In this document: positions 1,117 to 41,792 of the stretch, in pieces
How the letters are laid out: each line of letters begins with the position of its first letter
Position numbering within the stretch: the stretch's first letter is position 1
Source of the DNA: Naegleria gruberi
Taxonomy: Eukaryota
Direction: 5' to 3' (one strand)
Length of the DNA: 64,000 nt
Assembly (NCBI GenBank): GCA_000004985.1
Contig: GG738849.1
Translations under genes and position numbers: made by a program
The notes under the pieces: model-generated
The model's input: only the letters and a program-made list of their open reading frames with translations
The model's database searches: none
What the model was told of the DNA's origin: nothing

Positions 1117-3064
1117 TTAATATTTAATGTCTTGGACTGGTTCATCATTTCGGGATGTACTCAAAGAGGAAACACTCTGTGTGTCAGAAATCATGCTGAG
1201 TATATTACTGCTGGTAAGTTTGTTCTTATTACTCCTTCCTGCTAGTACTGACAAGTTGGTATTACTCTGGCTGTCTAAAAGTTGTTCTCTCATGAATTTA
1301 ACTTGTTGAATGAGTTCTGAATTTTCTGAAACCAAATCATCGTATGCTCCTGTTAATATTGAGAGTTTGTCATTATTTTGCATGTCCCTTTTCTGCATTT
1401 GCTCCTCCAACCTTAAAATATAATTCTCTGATTGGGTCAGTTCTTTTGAAACAATTTTCCTACTCTTTCTTTCAGATTCCAGTTTTTCCTTTAGTTTTTC
1501 ATTTTCTACCTTTAATTGTTCAATTATTCCCTTTTGAATTTCTTGTTTAATCCTCATTTCCTTAACAATCCTTGATTCTTTCGGGGTTATGCTTAGAGAA
1601 GAAGAATCGAGAAAAGACTTTAAAGAGCTAGTTAAATTTCTTGTCCTTTCAGTTTGGGATCCATCACTTTCAATGGTCAATTTTTGAAGTAAGGAACTAA
1701 TTTCTGATGTGAGAGATTCTCTTAAGCTCTCTGTTGCTCTTTCATTTTCATACCTATATTTGATTTCTTCTATTTTCTCTCGAAGAGAATAAATTACACT
1801 ATCCTTTTCACTAGATGTCATATTCAACACGGGGAATTTCTTTGGAGTACTATTCAGTAGGGATTGAGAAAGCTTTACGATGGGTGAGTCTTCAGCGCTT
1901 GGAATATCTTTTCGCAAGGTACTATTAACACTTGACAATTCTTCATCAGAAAGATGTTTAGAGAGAGACCGTCTTCCTTTCTTTACGTATGGTCTTTGAC
2001 TTCTAGTGAGGAATTTCTCCAACTCTTCAACTTGTGTTACAAATTGCTCTTCCAAATCGTTCTTTTCCTTAGTGACATCGTCGAGAGCATATTTCAACAC
2101 TCTGTTTGCCTCAATCATTGAATAGAGATCATTATCGGTCTCTAACCCATCATCGTCAGGAATTGGGGTAATGTCAATATTGTGTACAGAATCTATGAGA
2201 AGAGATGAATTTCTTGAAGAAGAATTTACACTTTTGCTCTAGGAATTAGAATTTGTAAATCGTCATCTGCTTGCACTTCCTGATCAATTGAATCATCCAA
2301 ATTGTACACTAATTTTTGAATAGGTTGAGGTGAAGAAGGGTCTTCAGTATTAAAATCCAATTGACTTGCACCATTCGGAGAATCACTAAGGCCAGTCGAA
2401 ATTGAACTAATTTCCGAATTTTCCTCATCCTCTGTATCAGTCATTTTGTATTTATCTGTTGCATATATTCTTCTTGAAAGTGGTTTTTGAGGAGAGGAAG
2501 TTTTTGAGGATTTCTTAATGGCTGATTGAAACATTCTCTCAACTTTTAATCGTTGGGCTTTTTGAATATCAAAATTTTCGGAAATGGCATTACAATATTC
2601 GGATGATGTATTATTGTTCAAAATATAATTATTATTATTATTCGATCGAGATGGGATGGGTTGGAAGTATTATCTTGTTGATGGTAGGGTAATTCTCTGG
2701 AGTAGGAAAACTTTCTAGGAGCATTGCTTCGAATTGGATTGCTGGATGGATGATGGTAATTGATAATATTTTCCTGATATTGTTGAAGATTTTGTTCGGA
2801 AAGAGTTGGATAATGGCTTGATGAATTTAAGGATGAAGAAGAGGAATTGGCAAAGGATGAATTTCTCGATATGACTGCAATGGAAGTACTAGATGATGAG
2901 AGCGAGGGCCTTCTTCCCCGAGAGGAGGTGGATTTCATTGGGGAATTTGAGGCTGCTACAATAATGGCAGCACTTCTCATTCCCAGCTCATCGAGGTAAT
3001 TGCCCTCTCCAATCAATGATGATGATGAAGATGAGGAAAGCAATGATGAGGTCGGTAGACTCAT
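1117..3064 (-). CDS. Serine-rich coiled-coil protein; one gene read as three ORF pieces with two frame disruptions (-1 near 2230 and -1 near 2620-2660). Possible pseudogene, or assembly indels
   Basis: Minus-strand ORFs 3064-2618, 2621-2226 and about 2238-1117 abut or overlap, share S-rich composition, and each successive frame is open before the previous one stops. No GT..AG intron can be placed across the second overlap window. The first junction lies in an (AAT)4/TTTT microsatellite. The second overlap window is only 13 nt and contains an A4 run. An ATTTTGGCGCCAAAAT palindrome lies about 55 nt upstream of the ATG at 3064. Confidence 0.45.
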
Positions 3065-29679: not shown

Positions 29680-31093
29680 ATGATGATTAACAATACTATT
29701 AACGCTCAAGACAATATTGCTCTCTACAAGTACAAGCAACAATTAGAACAATTGGAAAATTGCAAAGGCTTGGGAACATCTGTTATTACCTTGTTGGTTA
29801 GTTGCAAGACTTCATTGACTCAAGTTATTTCTCAAATGGATCAACGTTTGACAAAGTCTAACAATATCAAGTCGTGTATTTAACAGGAATAGTGTTCAAG
29901 TGGCTACAAGGACTGTTATATCCAGATTAAAGCTATTGAAACAGACACCTGCTAATGGTTTGGCAATTTTCTGTGGAATGGTAAATCCAGATTCTGCTCC
30001 AGGTTTATTCTCTGATGATGAATCTAGTTTGGTGGTTGATAACGGTTTAGAAGGCTCTGACAATAATGCACATGTTGATTTGAAGAAATTGTGTGTTATG
30101 ATTGAACCACCAAATCCAATTGACAGCAATCTTTACTATTGTGACGATTGTTTCCATGTTGAACAGTTGAGAAGTCAATTGCAAGAATTTAATTCTGGAA
30201 AAACTTATGGTGTAATTGTTATTACAGGTACAGGTACTTTGTATGGTACTTTACGTGGAAATACCAGTAGTATTTTACGTGAATTTTCTCATGAACTTCC
30301 AAAGAAACATTCTAAGGGAGGTCAATCTCGTGAAAGATTTGCTAGAAATAGAGAAATTGCCAAGAATGAATATCTCAAGATTATTGCAGAGAAGGCAAAT
30401 GGTTTATTCGTTTCTTCAGCTCTCAATGCTCCAACTGTTGATGCTATTATTCTTGCTGGATGTGCAGAATTGAAGAATGAATTACTTTCTCTCAAATCTG
30501 ATTGTTTAGACTATAGATTGAGAACTAGAATTTTAACTGTTGTTGATGTTGCATATGGTGGCAGACCTGGATTTTATCAAGCTATTCAACTTGCACAAAA
30601 TGAAATTCAAGATTCTAGATTCTTGGAAGAGAGTGAAACCATTCAAGAGCTATTGAATTTACTTTCCAAAGGATCCAAGGCTGTTGTTGGTTTGGAAGAA
30701 ACCATGTTTGCTATTGCAAGTGGTTGGGCTAGTAAGGTAATCTTGTGCGAAAAGCAATCATCCTTGAAGAGAGTTACACTCTCTGATGATTCTGTTCACT
30801 ATTTGGAAGAAGACAAGATTAAATTCTTATTGGAAAGAAATTCTGTCAAGGTTGCTAGAATTGAAAACCTTATTGATTATTTAGTTGACAATTACAAGAA
30901 AATTGGTATTGACAAGTTGTCTCTTGTTACTGATTGTACTAATGAGGGAAATATGTTTTTGAAGGGCTTCTCAGGTATTGGTGCTATTCTAAAGTTTGAT
31001 GTAAATGTTGCCTCTCTTCTCTCTGAGGAGAAGGATAACTTTGAAGCTTTTGAAGAGGAAGCCTACAATGAAGACTTGTCCGAATTCTACTAA
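29680..31093 (+). CDS. Eukaryotic peptide chain release factor subunit 1 (eRF1), encoded in two frames: frame 1 runs 29680..29880 and ends NIKS-C-I-TAA; the +1 frame runs from about 29882 to 31093
   Basis: Frame 1 encodes LYKYKQQLEQLENCKGLGTSVITLLVS...RLTKSNNIKS (compare human [25 protein letters not shown]...TASNIKS). The +1 frame encodes NRNSVQVATRTVISRLKLLKQTPANGLAIFCGMV...GQSRERFARNR...GFSGIGAILKFDV (compare [32 protein letters not shown]...GGQSALRFARLR...). The frames overlap over only 32 nt (29852-29883), with the 0-frame stop in ATT TAA C. No GT-AG intron of plausible size fits. Confidence 0.85.
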
Positions 31094-31299: not shown

Positions 31300-31695
31300 A
31301 TGTCTGAAATTGTATATTCTGTTATGGAGTACTTGTTGGATGAACAATTCGGTGATGCTGTAGGTAAATTAAAAACATGATTCTAAATAATGGATGATAA
31401 GGTAGAAGAGTTCGGTAATAAGCACTGTGATATCTTTGAAATTGATGAAGAAGAACAAAAATTGGAATATACAAATGTATACAACAAATTCGTAAAGCTT
31501 TTTGAATCCAAAGTTGAAGAATTGCTTAAACAAAAGGGAGTCACACCTCAAGAATTTTATATTGAATGTAAAAGATTGTCTGAGGAAGAAAACGATCAAG
31601 AAATTGTAGAGTTCTTGTTAGCACTTTCAGATTATCAAGTATTTTACAACATGATGAAGGAAATCAAGTTGAGAAAACTAGGAAAACAACAATAA
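31300..31695 (+). CDS. ARL2-binding protein (BART)-like; two exons (31300..31359 or ..31363, 31402 or 31406..31695)
   Basis: The spliced product MSEIVYSVMEYLLDEQFGDAVEEFGNKHCDIFEIDEEEQKLEYTNVYNKFVKLFESKVEELLKQ...LALSDYQVFYNMMKE matches ARL2BP (FDAVVGYLEDIIMDDEFQ...EDTEENKLIYTPIFNEYISLVEKYIEEQLL...FTDFLAFKEMFLD). The intron is 42 nt (GTAGGT or GTAAAT donor, TTCTAAAT branch, AAG or TAG acceptor); both options give the same protein. An ATGGCGCCAT palindrome lies 60 nt upstream. Confidence 0.6.
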
Positions 31696-36825: not shown

Positions 36826-37195
36826 GTTTTTTCTTCTGTTCTAGTAGGTGATGATTCTTCAACTGTTGTTGATCTGGGAAGGAAGTCCTGATTCAACGAT
36901 TGACAGATGAATTTGCAACATTTGTATTATTTATTAATTACAATCTTTATCTTATTTCTGTAAACAATTTCTTAAAGTAGAGTTTCATGTTTCTGATGTA
37001 TTTGAAATCGACTTTACAGTTTAGTTGTTCAACAATTTTCATTTATTGGAAATTATTAAACTAAAACCAAAGCATACTCAAATTTAATTTTCAATTTTTA
37101 TAACTCTTTTAACTAGTTTTATTAAATCATATTACCATATTTTATAACATTTTATTATTAATAAATATTTCTTTTTGAATTCTAACCACAAAAAA

Positions 37196-40100
37196 ATGAA
37201 ATTACACAACCGAAGAATTAAACCTGCTGGAAGTGGATTAATTTCAGCCGTGGACAAGAATGCATCCACTGGGAATTTATTGGCACCACCACAACAACAA
37301 AATTCATCAAGGAGTGCTTCACCATCGTCAAACAATGTCGGAGCAGGAAATTTTAATACACCATCATCGAGTTATAGAAAATGTTTATTGATGGTCCATG
37401 AGAAGGATTTTAGTGATCAGGAAATATTAATTAATGGAAAAGCAATTACGTGGCTTCAAATAGGAGATATTTTGGAAATTTCTCAACCAAAGACGCCACC
37501 TTCTAATGAACATAATGCTACTACTTCATCATCACCAGTTTCTTCATCAGTGAATATTAATAGTGCCTCAACACCAATTGATATTTCTGGTGTTGCCACT
37601 CAGAATTATTCGGATTTATCCTTCTCTCCTTTTTCTTCATATAAATCACCAGCAAAAGCATCAACACCACCAACAGGGGCAAGTTTTAAACAAGCACCTT
37701 CAGTGGGGAATGTTACAAGTAATGCACAACAACAACAACCACAACCTAGTTTTACCTCCTCAGCAAGTAATCCAAAGACATTTATTGTAAAAGTAACTTC
37801 TCTAGATGCACAAAAAGGTGTTCCCTATTTGAGCATTTCAAAAAACATTGCAGACGTTTTTGATTTTCAATCGAGAAAGGATGTTTATGTTCGAGTAATA
37901 CCAAAAGAAAGTGCCATGTTGGACTATGCTGTTTTTTCTATTCGGGATCACTTTCTTTCCAGATCAGATATGTGGAGATTTGGATTATATTTGAATGATA
38001 CTAGTGTTTATGAATCAAAAACTTTAACATGGCATGGTGGTATCAGAGTCCAAGTAAAGGAACTCATGAAAGAAACAACTGGAAAAGTGTCATCAGGAAT
38101 AATAGTTTATGGTCATACCAAGATAACATATCGTTCAAATTCAGCTGTAATATATTGGTTATTCCAAATGAGTAGAGAAATGTGGGAATATGACGAGTAT
38201 GGTAACTTGATTTTTGAAAGAGTTATTAATGGATTTATTAAAACAGTTTTTGATAGATGGAGAGAAGTTGGTGTTAACCACTCACTATCAATAGTATTCT
38301 TTTCGAGACACTACATAACAGAAGAGGACAAGGATAATTTTGAAGAGACGAGAAATGAAGAGGATCATATGGCATCCTTAGGAAATAGAACAAATATTAA
38401 TCATTCTATTATTGGATCTAAAGATGGAAAACGATATGTAGATTTTTACAAAGTAGTTGATTGTACTGAAACTCAAAGAATACGATCACAAGAAATCAGA
38501 ATTCTTTTAAAGAAGGAATTTTTAGAATTTGAAAATATGGTAAAAGGTATAGCAGAAAAGGAAAGAGTAGTATTGCAAAATTCATCGGCAGCAGATAGTA
38601 ATTTTATGGAAGCTATTAATTTAGTTTTAAACAGTTATGACAAGTATTACATTAATCGTGATCTTACTAGAACAGGCCAAGTTATTCTTTTGGTATCACC
38701 AGGTAGTGGAATGTTTGATGTACAAATACCAGTTTTGGGTAAGATTACTACCAAAAGGTTGATGGATGTTGGTTTATCAGTTGACCTTATTGCCCATTCT
38801 GTTCCCCCACTTCACTCGGTACCTATTTTCAGGTATAAAAAGAAAGAAGTTGGAGTTTCTAATAACCAAGAATCACCTCATTTGAAGGAATATACATATT
38901 ATAGATCTCCTGATTGGATCAATATTACATTTTACAGAGAAAATTATTTCAAGAATGATATTTGTATAGATCATGAGGATTGTGAATGCACAGATAGCGC
39001 CAGTAATCTCTTCCTCCCAGTTTCTAAAATGCCTAATTTAGAAACGCTTCCAACCAACATTCCACTATTTGAAAAATACTGGACTAACTTTAATTCAATT
39101 AATAGCAATTCTCATCATACCAATAACTCGAGTGGAAGTATTGCAGAATTGTGTCGTCAACATGATGAACAAGTTTTCAAAATCTTCCAACAATCTCGTC
39201 AAACCTCCCACTACCAAACATCTTCCCTTTCCAATATTTCCCACATATCTAAAAAGACAAGCCTCTCATCACACGACCTTATTCATGGAACACCAACAAA
39301 GCAGAGAGAGGAAAGGTCCATAATTTCCGACTCGAGTCCAAAGAATCCCCACATTATCAATCACCACCTGGAAGAATTGAAACAATCTGAACACATTTCA
39401 GGACTGCCCAGCAGTGGTAGCAGTGTTGGATTTGAATCATCTTTTGATACCAATCATCAGAATGACTTCAATGGATCAACACCAAGTAATAATGCATCTA
39501 CAAATACTCCTCAACACGGAGGTTCTCATTCAACTCATCATCTTCCAATCACTCATAATTCTGCCAGTTCAATGGTAAATATGGGCAGTGCAAATAGTGG
39601 TGTTCTGCGACGTTCACCACATTCTGGAACACCATTCATGGCTGAACTAGCTGAAAGACACAAGGCCAAAGAATTGTTCTACATGAAACTGTTCAATCCA
39701 TTCCATATGGATTCCGAAACCTTATCAAGCCCAGGCTCACTTCAAAACAACAATCAACAAAACACTTTCCACAGAAAGAGATGGGGTCACTTACATCCAA
39801 GTTCAGGTCTCAGACCAACCCAAAAATCAGAATATATCAAACATTTTCTTCTCAATGTTAACTGGCAAGGTGTTTCAGAACCTGCCTGTTTACCAATTAC
39901 CACAGATTATTGGCCTGAGTCTGCCCTTAAGATTTTGAATGATTTTGATTTGCACACACATACCATTACTGATACCAATAATATTTACAAAAGTATTTCA
40001 ACCCTTGTGAGAGAATTAGTTTGTCAAAGATTACATCAAGGTTTCCAATTATTTAATGATGATTTACCCAAAGATCCTCTCAGTAACCAACCAATTATAA

Positions 40101-41792
40101 TAACACCTTTGCCAACTCGTAATGATGATACAGATAATACTTCTTCTTCACTGCGATAACACTGAAAAGTCTGATGCATCCAATAATATGGAAGCTGATA
40201 ATATTTCAACTATATCCACTGGATCAAACAATTCTGAACTCTCAACTCAATCAAAGAGAGGAAGAGGAGGAAGAGCTCTCAGAGGAGGAAGAGGTGTCAA
40301 TGCTGCTGCAATGAGAAGAAGGCCACCAACAACCAATACTTCTAACAGCACATCAGAAACAACAGTAACACACGAATCTTCATCAAAACAAAAGGTAAAA
40401 CCTCAAAAGATGGAATATTGTCTTTCTTCAGCAAATCAATTCCACAAAATAACCTACAATCCAAATATTTCCAACATGGTTACAATTGATCGTTATGTTC
40501 CTAAGGTTGCTAAAAGTGCAGACAAACCATCATCAACTACAAGTAGTGGAACCAATAGCTCATCCAATAATAGTTCCTCTACAACACTAGTCAATGATGC
40601 TGATCCATTTAATAATGCTAGATCCACTTACACTTATAGATACATGCTTTGGAATCCAACTTTGAAGAGCTATGAATCCAGAGTTACCAGATTCAATTCA
40701 GCAGTTGACTATAATTGGAATAAGTTGGATTACTTGATTTGTGGTGATCACAATCAAATGACAGACGAACTGCACAACAGATCCCTTCAATTCCACATTG
40801 TGCCAATCAACAACTCTAACAAGAACTTGTTTGCCTCTCAAACTCAATTATTTGGAGCTTTCAATAATAATTCTAGTTTACAGGTGCTTGGTGGTTCTAA
40901 CAACAATTCTAGTAGTGATTTATTCTCACAAGCTTCTAACAGCTCTAATGAATACACCAAGAGATTGGAAAACTTTAAGAAATTTAAAGATGCAATTGTA
41001 AATAGGTCATTTAGGGGAATGGATGGAGATAATGTTGATGTTTCACTTATTGGAGATGAGAGCTCAACTAACCAAATACCATCCAACAGCTCTGCTAAAA
41101 CAGCCAAACTTCAATTTGTCCCACAAGAAGGAGGAATTGATGACAACAGTCGTGTGGAGTGGTTAAATATTGTATATAAGGCATCTTACCATCCTGCAGA
41201 ATTTTGGTCGTTTAAGGTACAATGGCTTGTCTGTACAGCTGCCCTCATTGATGAATTTTTACAGACATTGGCCAGAAGAGCCAGGCAATTAGGATTTGCA
41301 ATGATTCAAACTCCAGCTGAAATTGATAGCTATACAAACTTTGTTCATGCCTCAAAACAAGCTGCAGATAGATTGTTACATGGCAATTATAAAACAGGAG
41401 GTCTAGATCCATTGGAGAATGTACATCCTTTCAGAAGTTATGTCAGAATACCAATTACCTCAATAGAGGCAATGTATTCTATTAGAAATGCCATTTGTGA
41501 ACCTCCTCTTAATTTTATTCCAGACTCTTTCCACAGAAAGAATTCAAAGAGATTTATTCACATCAGTGGTTGCATTATTTTACATATTGATGCTATTAAG
41601 GGCTCTGATACTGCCCTAATTACTTGGATAGACAATCCATTCCAAACTTTTGATTTGAATGTTGCCAATTCAGTCGACCAAAATGATATACTCAACACTT
41701 TGAGAAAACTTGTATTCTCGGAGGCATCAGGAGCAGGCAAGTTCACTTTACAACTAACTCCTGGAAGTAATCCTTTTGAATATTCCCAATAG
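37196..41792 (+). CDS. DEPDC5 / Iml1 (GATOR1/SEACIT subunit) ortholog; coding sequence switches from frame 2 to frame 0 within 40104-40159 (CGA TAA C)
   Basis: N-terminal Iml1 domain (KCLLMVHEKDFSDQEILINGKAITWLQIGDILEISQP; RSDMWRFGLYLNDTSVYESKTLTWHGGIRVQVKELM...IVYGHTKITYRSNSAVIYWLFQMSREMWEYDEYGNLIFERVINGFIKTVFDRWRE...SIVFFSRHY; INLVLNSYDKYYINRDLTRTGQVILLVSPGSGMFDV). Middle (PACLPITTDYWPESA...RELVCQRLHQGFQLF). After the frame switch, the C-terminal region (YNWNKLDYLICGDHN; RVEWLNIVYKASYHPAEFWSFKVQWLVCTAALIDEFLQ) continues the DEPDC5 alignment. Confidence 0.8.

Follow-up and report, generated by a model that had tools for sequence, protein, structure and literature searches.

A split eRF1 gene in Naegleria gruberi and its relatives, probably decoded by a programmed +1 frameshift

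A release factor gene divided between two frames

How can a full-length eRF1 be made from a gene that runs into a stop codon after 67 codons and resumes in another frame? Such a gene lies on the plus strand of the 64-kb stretch of Naegleria gruberi DNA that we analysed (the window), within which it is the only eRF1 gene, as an earlier, sequence-only reading had stated. Its first part, ORF1 (29680..29880, frame 0), begins with the ATG at 29680 and supplies the first 67 codons of eRF1 (MMINN...GLGTSVITL...TKSNNIKSCI), among which the GTS and NIKS stop-recognition motifs can be read directly. ORF1 ends with ACA AAG TCT AAC AAT ATC AAG TCG TGT ATT (T K S N N I K S C I) and is closed by a TAA at 29881..29883; the conserved N-domain that had been described for frame 0, up to TKSNNIKSCI and then TAA, reads just so at 29680-29883. 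The second part, ORF2, is open in the +1 frame (29882..31093) and consists of 403 codons plus a stop, with the coding part at 29882-31090 and the true stop, TAA-A, at 31091-93. It starts with AAC AGG AAT AGT GTT CAA GTG GCT (N R N S V Q V A), reads NRNSVQVATRTVISRLK...YYCDDCF...KGGQS...EDLSEFY, and holds the remainder of domain 1, domain 2 (GGQ) and domain 3.

The +1 frame is closed by a TGA at 29849-51 and open from 29852, and the overlap of the two open frames therefore covers 32 nt (29852..29883), the length given in the earlier reading. This is the sole place where the frame can change. At its 3' end lies the heptamer ATT_TAA_C (29878..29884), made up of AUU as the P-site codon, UAA as the 0-frame stop and C at +4; the base that a +1 shift would skip is the first T of the stop, at 29881. 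A second 0-frame stop, TAG, follows at 29890..29892, two sense codons (CAG GAA) past the first, so that any product of in-frame readthrough would end there. Genuine gene ends in the window prefer TAA-A (9/26), and a tRNA scan of the 64 kb found no tRNA genes.

When the 67 codons of frame 0 are joined to the 403 codons of the +1 frame, the fused product of 470 amino acids reads ...NNIKSCI-NRNSV... across the junction, in the stretch ...NNIKSCINRNSVQ..., and all three eRF1 Pfam domains score above their curated cutoffs (eRF1_2, 106.6 bits; eRF1_3, 45.8 bits; eRF1_1, 32.4 bits with a cutoff of 23.8 bits). The eRF1_1 match covers residues 24-103 of the fused protein and spans the junction; this domain was undetected in ORF1 alone and in ORF2 alone. 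The motifs GLGTS, SNNIKS, YYCDDCF and KGGQS are all present in the fused product, and G213-G214-Q215 is invariant in the family alignments. That skipping the T of TAA gives a gapless fit to human eRF1 was borne out by alignment, with no gap across the junction over human residues 7-101. The product of ORF2 is 100% identical to an N. gruberi protein named 'eukaryotic peptide chain release factor subunit 1'.

Deep conservation of the break under selection

Comparison of the orthologous site in related species had been proposed as a check on this locus. We fetched 16 distinct lineages, namely N. gruberi, N. lovaniensis, Willaertia magna and 13 environmental relatives, from genome and metagenome assemblies; some are only ~38% identical in protein. 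The break NTT_TAA_C is kept at the same codon in 16/16, always two codons past (N/R)IKS, with RIKS replacing NIKS in nine of them. ORF1 is conserved at all homologous loci and is intact from its ATG to the shift stop in every lineage whose 5' end is present. The P-site codon is ATT in eight lineages, CTT in four and GTT in four, and in a subset of 13 loci its first base is A five times, C four times and G four times, with UU_U fixed. The heptamer is invariant while neighbouring synonymous sites are saturated: the Arg codon just past the site occurs as five synonyms (AGG, AGA, CGT, CGG, CGA) and the Val codon as four, while the third base of NTT and the codon AAC are constant in all lineages. 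C follows the stop in all 16, even though most of these genes encode Asn by AAC less often than by AAT (15-30% AAC in Naegleria and Willaertia genes). The same Val-Asn pair is free in the unshifted eRF1 genes that we fetched, which use GTC, GTG, GTA or GTT and AAC or AAT.

The position of the shift can be read from one lineage, L061, in which AAT ATC AAA TCG CGG GTT TAA C encodes NIKSRV, followed by NRQSV. This is the canonical eRF1 sequence plus exactly one extra T, which fixes the shift at the stop. Thus, the claim that ribosomes shift at ATT_TAA_C by skipping the T of the stop, in the manner of prfB, gains strong support both from the invariance of NTT_TAA_C and from the frame-0 reading of L061. 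A different path between the frames, by a -2 shift or an earlier +1 shift through the +1-frame string 'SRVF', a mimic of the canonical SRV, was considered and rejected because in L008 the string is altered (S>N, V>A) by substitutions that are synonymous in frame 0 and because L061 has the canonical R-V in frame 0.

The sequence-only reading had offered a 1-2 nt indel or assembly error as its fallback. An extra T within a T-run is indeed a typical error, and public gene models call the region non-coding or splice around it, which speaks for such an error or for a very short unrecognised intron. However, the identical feature recurs in sixteen independent assemblies, genomes and metagenomes alike. 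Exhaustive enumeration of GT..AG pairs upheld the earlier argument that an intron would delete conserved residues: every pair that fuses the frames removes NIKS or the NRxSV/RLK block, or else spans only 13-25 nt, whereas real introns in the window measure 42-55 nt. In addition, L061 leaves room for one base only, and L069 has a genuine 42-nt intron 5 nt past the stop and still needs the +1 shift. The indel and intron readings are already refuted by these comparative data, and we give them practically no weight.

Frame 0 and the +1 frame bear similar marks of constraint. The ratio pN/pS is 0.11-0.42 in ORF1 and 0.10-0.23 in the 32 codons of the +1 frame immediately 3' of the site, and between N. 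gruberi and L008 the substitutions AAG>AAA and TGT>TGC, upstream of the stop, are silent in frame 0 and non-silent in the +1 frame. These patterns indicate purifying selection on both frames right up to the site. They also bear on whether the locus might be a decaying or non-essential paralog of an intact eRF1 encoded elsewhere, or a source of two separate polypeptides. Divergence is unusually high in the N. gruberi protein, whose score against human eRF1 is only ~246 bits, and amoebae do have paralogs, one of eRF1 being reported in Acanthamoeba (PMC3521657). Yet purifying selection acts on the two ORFs in each of the lineages, and GGQ, NIKS, YxCxxxF and the acidic C-terminal tail are all retained. 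Some frameshifted members are close to canonical eRF1 (L061 has 57% identity to the human protein) and others are divergent, a gradation expected of an orthologous eRF1 lineage, and no canonical eRF1 labelled Naegleria or Willaertia was among the matches listed in our protein searches. As for separate polypeptides, the 32 conserved codons directly 3' of the site precede any ATG, so ORF2 is not translatable on its own, and domain 1 needs both halves. We consider this pair of explanations highly improbable.

The frame might instead be restored in RNA, either by editing that removes a U or by polymerase slippage on the run of three T. Heterolobosea belong to Discoba, a group with known U-deletion editing, but within that group such editing is known only from kinetoplastid mitochondria, and we know of no U-deletion editing of nuclear mRNA. 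As for slippage, known transcriptional slippage sites are far longer than a run of three T. Four contigs of 1.3-1.7 kb (L008, L015, L020 and L068), each carrying this gene alone with short flanks, look like assembled transcripts and keep the extra T. Finally, editing would leave the selected C at +4 unexplained, AAC being used in 16/16 lineages against the local codon bias. Repair at the RNA level is therefore very unlikely.

A proposed slippage mechanism and its regulation

The best explanation for this locus, in N. gruberi and across its clade, is in our view a programmed +1 frameshift at AUU_UAA_C coupled to negative autoregulation by the level of eRF1, a reading that we regard as probable. 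Full-length eRF1 would be made only upon a +1 shift at this heptamer. Once 67 codons have been read, the P site would be occupied by peptidyl-tRNA-Ile paired with AUU, while UAA would stand in the A site. With C as its next base, this UAA is in a weak termination context; in yeast, UAA-C and UAG-C rank with the stop contexts that best induce frameshifting (PMC3521657). Two outcomes would then be open. In one, eRF1 binds and a useless 67-residue peptide is released. In the other, the peptidyl-tRNA slips by one base from NUU to UUU, keeping two of its three base pairs, which would place AAC (Asn) in the A site and let translation in the +1 frame complete the 470-residue factor. A free first base together with a fixed UU_U is what re-pairing in the +1 frame would be expected to leave, and it is from this pattern that we infer the slippage. 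As the competing reaction would be catalysed by the gene's own product, the frequency of shifting would be tied to the eRF1 level: scarce eRF1 would lead to more shifting and abundant eRF1 to less, a negative feedback suggested by analogy with prfB.

The site probably arose when a single T was inserted into an ancestral GTT AAC (Val-Asn), an event that would in one step have given rise to the stop, to the slippery UU_U and to C at +4. We lean towards a history in which this one ancient insertion, giving GUU_UAA_C immediately behind the NIKS motif, founded a heterolobosean prfB-like feedback loop on a working eRF1 that has since been kept clade-wide as a sensor of termination capacity. The same shift could, however, be constitutive and non-regulatory, a 'saviour' frameshift by which efficient slippage, at a stop that happened to be shifty, rescued an essential gene from the ancient T insertion and was then frozen, much like the neutral shifty stops of Euplotes. 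The sequences call for an obligatory shift and are silent on regulation; a constitutive shift would be expected to leave the same signature, the site is one insertion away from canonical GTT AAC, and the sites of Euplotes are described as neutral and without regulatory function (PMC10235951). Against this, the gene encodes the very factor that competes with the shift, a coincidence found also in bacteria and giant viruses (PMC3521657, PMC5397192), and the 64-kb window holds no sign of the pervasive shifty stops known from Euplotes. Moreover, across at least 16 lineages, with protein identity down to ~38%, the site has never been reverted by a one-base deletion, and this persistence suggests that it is advantageous, beyond being tolerated. 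We thus think a constitutive shift unlikely, and the regulated shift remains our preferred reading.

What might assist such a regulated shift? The Ser codon of NIKS (TCG, 29872..29874), 7-9 nt 5' of the stop, is a candidate 5' context element. It is TCG in 12/13 loci of one count and in 14/16 overall, with TCT in its place in Willaertia and L068, and in N. gruberi this rare codon is the sole TCG among the 42 Ser codons of the gene. A downstream RNA stimulator was rejected, since RNAalifold, run on ten lineages over 113 nt, predicted 2 pairs without covariation, and the single-sequence fold 3' of the site had z = -0.47. Upstream, the sequence reads AAR UCG NGU, with no purine-rich stretch resembling a Shine-Dalgarno element. 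Eukaryotic 18S rRNA lacks an anti-Shine-Dalgarno sequence.

Relation to known recoding systems

The locus is like prfB in how it works and lies outside the prfB gene family. Both are class-I release-factor genes in which a short 0-frame ORF is ended by a stop that the factor itself reads, and in both the functional protein is made only via a +1 shift. As in prfB (CUU_UGA_C), NUU followed by U allows re-pairing on UUU, the P-site codon being literally CUU in 4/16 of our lineages, and C follows the stop. However, eRF1 is not homologous to RF2, and only eRF1-family Pfam domains were found here. The stop is UAA in place of UGA, the P-site codon may begin with A, C or G, and the site stands at codon 68, in the stop-recognition domain, as opposed to codon 26. 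No stimulator of the Shine-Dalgarno kind is present, and none is possible on the eukaryotic ribosome. Lastly, feedback has been demonstrated for prfB, whereas for eRF1 we infer it.

While the analogy to prfB that the sequence-only reading drew is supported, that reading overlooked a precedent of the eRF1 type, CUU_UAR_C in giant viruses (PMC3521657). Jeudy et al. 2012 (PMC3521657) described the class-I release factors Mimivirus R726 and Megavirus mg280, which are of eRF1/aRF1 type and whose synthesis, as in the gene described here, depends on a +1 shift, at CUU_UAG_C or CUU_UAA_C. N. lovaniensis and Willaertia have exactly the Megavirus heptamer. The viral genes differ in also needing readthrough of an upstream UGA, which is absent here, ORF1 being uninterrupted; in addition, the gene described here is cellular and chromosomal. 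The viral factors form a deep branch of their own, and the heterolobosean sequences a separate clade (16/17 sequences, bootstrap 195/200). In a scan of viral contigs, one giant-virus contig (L075) carried a split release factor with UCC_UAG_C ~40 codons further 3' and with NIKS and its flank intact, and four other viral eRF1 loci were unshifted; a second scan of viral contigs found no further split release factor. As L075 shifts at a different codon, its site is not positionally homologous to the heterolobosean one. Homology with the giant-virus frameshifts thus found no support among the viral loci scanned, four of them being unshifted and one split elsewhere.

In plants, eRF1-1 is autoregulated by readthrough combined with nonsense-mediated decay (NMD) (Nyiko et al. 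2017, PMC5397192). There too, a eukaryotic eRF1 senses the efficiency of termination at a stop codon in its own mRNA, but the plant sensor is the normal stop together with 3'UTR introns, and the protein comes from standard decoding, whereas in Heterolobosea no functional protein would be made unless recoding takes place. Since UPF1, SMG1 and SMG9 are present in N. gruberi (PMC5709506), termination at codon 68 could also feed NMD.

Two further eukaryotic systems invite comparison. Antizyme (UCC_UGA_U) resembles the eRF1 locus as a cytoplasmic +1 shift at a stop that serves as the sensor of a feedback loop; it differs in sensing polyamines and in using 5' and 3' RNA stimulators, while here there is no conserved structure and the quantity sensed is presumed to be eRF1. 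In Euplotes (AAA_UAA/UAG and others), the +1 shift likewise occurs at an internal UAA with a sense codon in the P site and requires no downstream structure, but it affects many genes and is considered non-regulatory, in contrast to the single, anciently conserved site in eRF1. The only other frame break in the window, at 40157 in DEPDC5/IML1 (CGA_TAA_C), was considered as a second shifty stop and rejected: a 76-nt GT..AG intron at 40119-40194 restores the frame, and the break is absent in N. fowleri, where the equivalent linker reads straight through. The remaining adjacent-ORF junctions in the 64 kb are ordinary introns.

A literature search that covered few subscription journals yielded no description of eRF1 frameshifting in Naegleria, in Heterolobosea or in any cellular eukaryote. 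Most likely, the eRF1 recoding circuit evolved independently and varies a type of recoding circuit that is already known. If the proposal is true, no circuit of this sort would have been known from a cellular eukaryote before, and release-factor frameshift autoregulation would have been invented independently a third time, bacteria and giant viruses being the other two cases, here with a feedback that works without an rRNA-pairing stimulator. The control of eRF1 level in eukaryotes is poorly understood, and the plant readthrough/NMD loop is the sole eukaryotic eRF1 circuit described (PMC5397192). The prfB loop has so far been regarded as bacterial, with the giant viruses as an oddity, and eukaryotic class-I release factors were described as free of internal stops (Jeudy et al. 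2012, PMC3521657). A deeply conserved NUU_UAA_C in a cellular eRF1 would mean that this solution had evolved once more, now on 80S ribosomes, and would inform the debate on whether giant viruses inherited their arrangement from an ancestor or reached it by convergence. It would also offer a minimal natural +1 signal for eukaryotes, one that lacks downstream structure and has only a short stretch of conserved 5' context, through which the rules of eukaryotic +1 slippage and termination context become directly testable. At a more practical level, all public gene models of this locus in Naegleria and Willaertia are truncated or mis-spliced, and the eRF1 of this clade will consequently be mis-scored in surveys of translation factors and of genetic-code evolution.

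The eRF1 gene and its public models

The window is AT-rich (~34% GC) and densely packed with genes, and both strands carry long ORFs. A protein search found an entry with 100% identity to the product of the long ORF at 29900-31093, annotated as 'eukaryotic peptide chain release factor subunit 1 [Naegleria gruberi]'. The sequence-only reading had claimed that this eRF1 gene is split between two frames that overlap by only 32 nt, and that skipping the T of TAA yields a gapless alignment to human eRF1. Direct reading of the DNA bore this out in all details. On the plus strand, ORF1 (frame 0) runs from the ATG at 29680 to the TAA at 29881-29883 and encodes MMINNTINAQDNIALYKYKQQLEQLENCKGLGTSVITLLVSCKTSLTQVISQMDQRLTKSNNIKSCI, while ORF2 (+1 frame) is open from 29852, following a TGA at 29849-29851, to the TAA at 31091-31093, and encodes NRNSVQVATRTVISRLKLLKQTPANGLAIFCG..., YYCDDCF and KGGQS; both frames are therefore open over 32 nt. 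The true end of the gene has a TAA-A context. The fused product of 470 aa aligns without gaps across the junction to human eRF1 residues 7-101. Pfam eRF1 domain 1 matches it with 32.4 bits (curated cutoff 23.8) over residues 24-103, spanning junction 67/68, and matches neither ORF1 alone nor ORF2 alone; domains 2 and 3 both lie within ORF2.

The public N. gruberi model for this locus (29680-31093; 371 aa) is wrong, beginning at Met-100 (MVNPDS). Its N. lovaniensis counterpart (L001, 2167-3631) is wrongly annotated as two genes of 80 aa and 376 aa, and the Willaertia magna model (457 aa; L002, 2501-3932) carries a false intron that drops ~20 codons, including NIKS.

Conservation of the break and of its codons

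Nearly all eRF1 homologues from the protein search are N-terminally truncated at the same point, the exception being the W. magna model P0006, which is spliced around the break. We fetched the DNA of every retrievable homologue: the named species N. lovaniensis (L001) and W. magna (L002), environmental or Logan contigs (L003/L004, L005, L006, L007, L008, L009/L010 and L011), additions from a metagenome scan (L015, L020, L021 and L061), and three more distant lineages from an exhaustive HMMER search (L068, L069 and L070). The same break was found in 16 distinct lineages, with protein identity to N. gruberi down to ~38%. All 16 share one layout: ...[N/R]-I-K-S-x-[I/L/V], then NTT TAA C, then in the +1 frame AAC (Asn)-Arg-x-Ser/Ala-Val. 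The P-site codon directly before the stop is ATT in eight lineages, CTT in four and GTT in four; every stop is TAA with C directly after it, so that comparison with relatives, a check that the sequence-only reading had proposed, finds the NTT TAA C heptamer kept throughout. As a fallback, that reading had also offered a 1-2 nt indel, meaning an assembly error or a functional copy elsewhere. Because the identical break is conserved across homologues, it is neither an error nor a sign of a decaying gene.

We then built a neighbour-joining tree from ~30 canonical eRF1s, two archaeal aRF1s and 17 sequences carrying or implying the break. Sixteen of the 17 (15 of the 16 loci plus the homologous protein P0023) formed a clade with bootstrap 195/200; the partial, slow-evolving metagenome sequence L061 was left unplaced, outside this main clade. 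R-I-K-S replaces the near-universal N-I-K-S in nine of the 16 lineages (L006, L007, L009, L011, L015, L020, L068, L069 and L070; the equivalent of 29863-29865), and NIKS is kept in Naegleria, Willaertia, L003 and L061.

Synonymous sites flanking the break are saturated: the Arg after AAC is encoded by AGG, AGA, CGT, CGG or CGA, and the next Val by all four codons. Despite this, all 16 lineages have T as the last base of the P-site codon and AAC for Asn, although in the Naegleria and Willaertia genes counted here only 15-30% of Asn codons are AAC. A naive product of codon frequencies over 13 counted loci is ~1e-6 for AAC and ~4e-7 for the P-site codon. The corresponding Val-Asn pair varies freely (GTC, GTG, GTA or GTT with AAC or AAT) in eRF1 genes that the metagenome scan recovered without the shift. 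These codon patterns argue for selection on the shift signal itself. Both reading frames are also constrained, with pairwise pN/pS of 0.11-0.42 over the last 55 codons of ORF1 and 0.10-0.23 over the 32 +1-frame codons that follow the break. In N. gruberi, those 32 codons precede any ATG, and thus could be translated only by ribosomes coming from ORF1.

The NIKS Ser codon (29872-29874) is TCG in 12 of the 13 counted loci and in 14/16 overall, with TCT in Willaertia and L068. TCG is nearly absent elsewhere in these genes: of the 42 Ser codons in the N. gruberi gene no other is TCG, and in six of the genes this codon is the sole TCG. Lying 7-9 nt 5' of the stop, it may be a 5' context element, acting as a stimulator or a slow codon.

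Introns, other frame breaks and the point of the shift

We enumerated all GT..AG pairs able to fuse the eRF1 frames; each removes NIKS or the NRxSV/RLK block, or measures just 13-25 nt, in agreement with the earlier claim that an intron would delete conserved residues. True introns in the window, including those with GTAAGT or GTATGT donors, are 42-55 nt long. One lies just 3' of eRF1 in the small plus-strand gene for an ARL2-binding BART-domain protein (31300-31695), whose 42-nt intron (31360-31401; GTAGGT...GATAAG, with an AAG acceptor), once spliced, widens the Pfam match from profile positions 21-113 to 3-113. L069 contains a genuine 42-nt GT..AG intron (337-378; GTTTGT...TTATAG) starting 5 nt 3' of the shifty stop, a natural control for the look of a real intron beside the site; because its length does not alter the phase, the +1 shift remains necessary. 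Restoration of the frame at the RNA level, by transcriptional slippage or U-deletion editing, is unlikely: the run of three Ts is shorter than known transcriptional slippage sites require, and nuclear U-deletion editing is not known.

The window has just one other frame break, in the plus-strand IML1/DEPDC5 gene (37175-41792), where a 994-aa ORF (frame 0, IML1 domain) is followed by a 556-aa ORF (+1, DEPDC5_CTD). Its CGA_TAA_C at 40157-40159 is the sole TAA-C among 26 long-ORF ends in the window, and no N. gruberi protein over the C-terminal ORF appeared among the database-search matches. This could be an indel or another recoding site, but the break is not conserved, as the matching low-complexity linker of N. 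fowleri lies in a single open frame, and removal of a 76-nt GT..AG intron (40119-40194; GTAATG...GGAAG) would bring the two ORFs into frame. It is thus likely an unannotated intron, and we reject pervasive shifty stops of the Euplotes type.

Upstream of the eRF1 stop, the +1 frame happens to spell S-R-V-F-N-R, near the canonical S-R-V-N-R, which prompted us to consider an earlier +1 or -2 shift. Two loci rule this out. L008, which shares 86% identity with N. gruberi, differs by AAG>AAA and TGT>TGC; neither alters the frame-0 protein, but in the +1 frame they would give S>N and V>A. L061, a 1066-nt metagenome contig (site at 503-509) that is 57% identical to human eRF1 over 249 aa, reads AAT ATC AAA TCG CGG GTT TAA CCG ACA GTC G, which translates as NIKSRV in frame 0 and as canonical residues in the +1 frame; apart from a single T added between GTT and AAC, this is the canonical eRF1 sequence. 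Together these sequences indicate that frame 0 is decoded to the last sense codon and that the shift occurs at the stop codon, its first base being skipped.

Proposed mechanism, possible regulation and precedents

Taking regulated and constitutive readings together, we consider it very probable that eRF1 can be made only through a +1 ribosomal frameshift at NUU_UAA_C, and that this shift is anciently conserved. In the proposed mechanism, NUU occupies the P site and UAA-C the A site, and termination would compete with slippage of the peptidyl-tRNA by one base (+1) onto UUU. Re-pairing at the second and third anticodon positions would predict the pattern observed, an invariant UU_U preceded by a first base that can be A, C or G. 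Eukaryotic Ile, Leu and Val tRNAs for NUU codons usually have A34/I34. TAA-A is the favoured context at genuine gene ends in the window, and UAA-C and UAG-C are among the stop tetranucleotides most prone to frameshifting in yeast (PMC3521657). We found no conserved RNA structure 3' of the shift site.

As eRF1 catalyses the competing termination, the shift rate is expected to depend on eRF1: scarcity would increase shifting and abundance reduce it, a negative feedback as in prfB. Control by eRF1 level is plausible on this analogy, and we favour a regulated frameshift as the probable reading; a constitutive one seems rather unlikely. Stopping at codon 68 would leave ~1.2 kb of mRNA untranslated, and since N. 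gruberi has UPF1, SMG1 and SMG9 (PMC5709506), NMD could reinforce the loop.

A possible second eRF1 elsewhere in the N. gruberi genome is a real caveat, as a paralog of eRF1 has been reported in Acanthamoeba (PMC3521657). Against this, both ORFs are under purifying selection, all catalytic and recognition motifs are retained, and family members grade from near-canonical to divergent. The site probably originated when one T was inserted into the canonical GTT AAC (Val-Asn) to give GTT TAA C, which would have made the stop together with the slippery UU_U and the C at +4; the NUU pattern then survived V>I/L and R>C/S substitutions. L061, which retains canonical residues on both sides of the break, is either a slow-evolving early branch or a separate origin of a GTT_TAA_C site.

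The formal analogy to bacterial prfB (CUU_UGA_C) drawn at the outset holds for the logic of the signal and very nearly for its sequence, but eRF1 and RF2 are not related and the eRF1 site has no Shine-Dalgarno stimulator; the locus works in a prfB-like way outside the prfB family. The closest precedent is the eRF1/aRF1-type class-I RF of Mimivirus (R726) and Megavirus (mg280), in which UGA readthrough is followed by a +1 shift at CUU_UAG_C or CUU_UAA_C, as demonstrated in E. coli by mass spectrometry in a study according to which such a motif was known in bacterial RFs only (PMC3521657). In the heterolobosean genes, by contrast, no stop requiring readthrough precedes the shift site. In plants, eRF1-1 is regulated via readthrough and NMD, and termination-factor autoregulation has by one count been invented independently three times (PMC5397192); if our reading is true, Naegleria eRF1 would be the fourth instance and the third via frameshift. 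A frameshift in a cellular eukaryotic eRF1 is unreported in the full-text literature covered, which included frameshifting reviews of 2016 and 2022 and few subscription journals.

Among giant-virus eRF1 loci from IMG/VR, four (L071-L074; 47-50% identical to human eRF1) are uninterrupted. A fifth, L075 (IMGVR_UViG_3300045431_000245, 1965-3039), encodes a divergent eRF1-type RF with a +1 change at UCC_UAG_C (2226-2232), ~40 codons 3' of an intact PNIKS region and without a readthrough stop further 5'; the layout is similar to that published for Mimivirus/Megavirus, but the P-site codon differs. Given the different position of the site in L075 and the lack of an upstream readthrough stop in the heterolobosean genes, independent origin of the heterolobosean and viral frameshifts appears the better reading.
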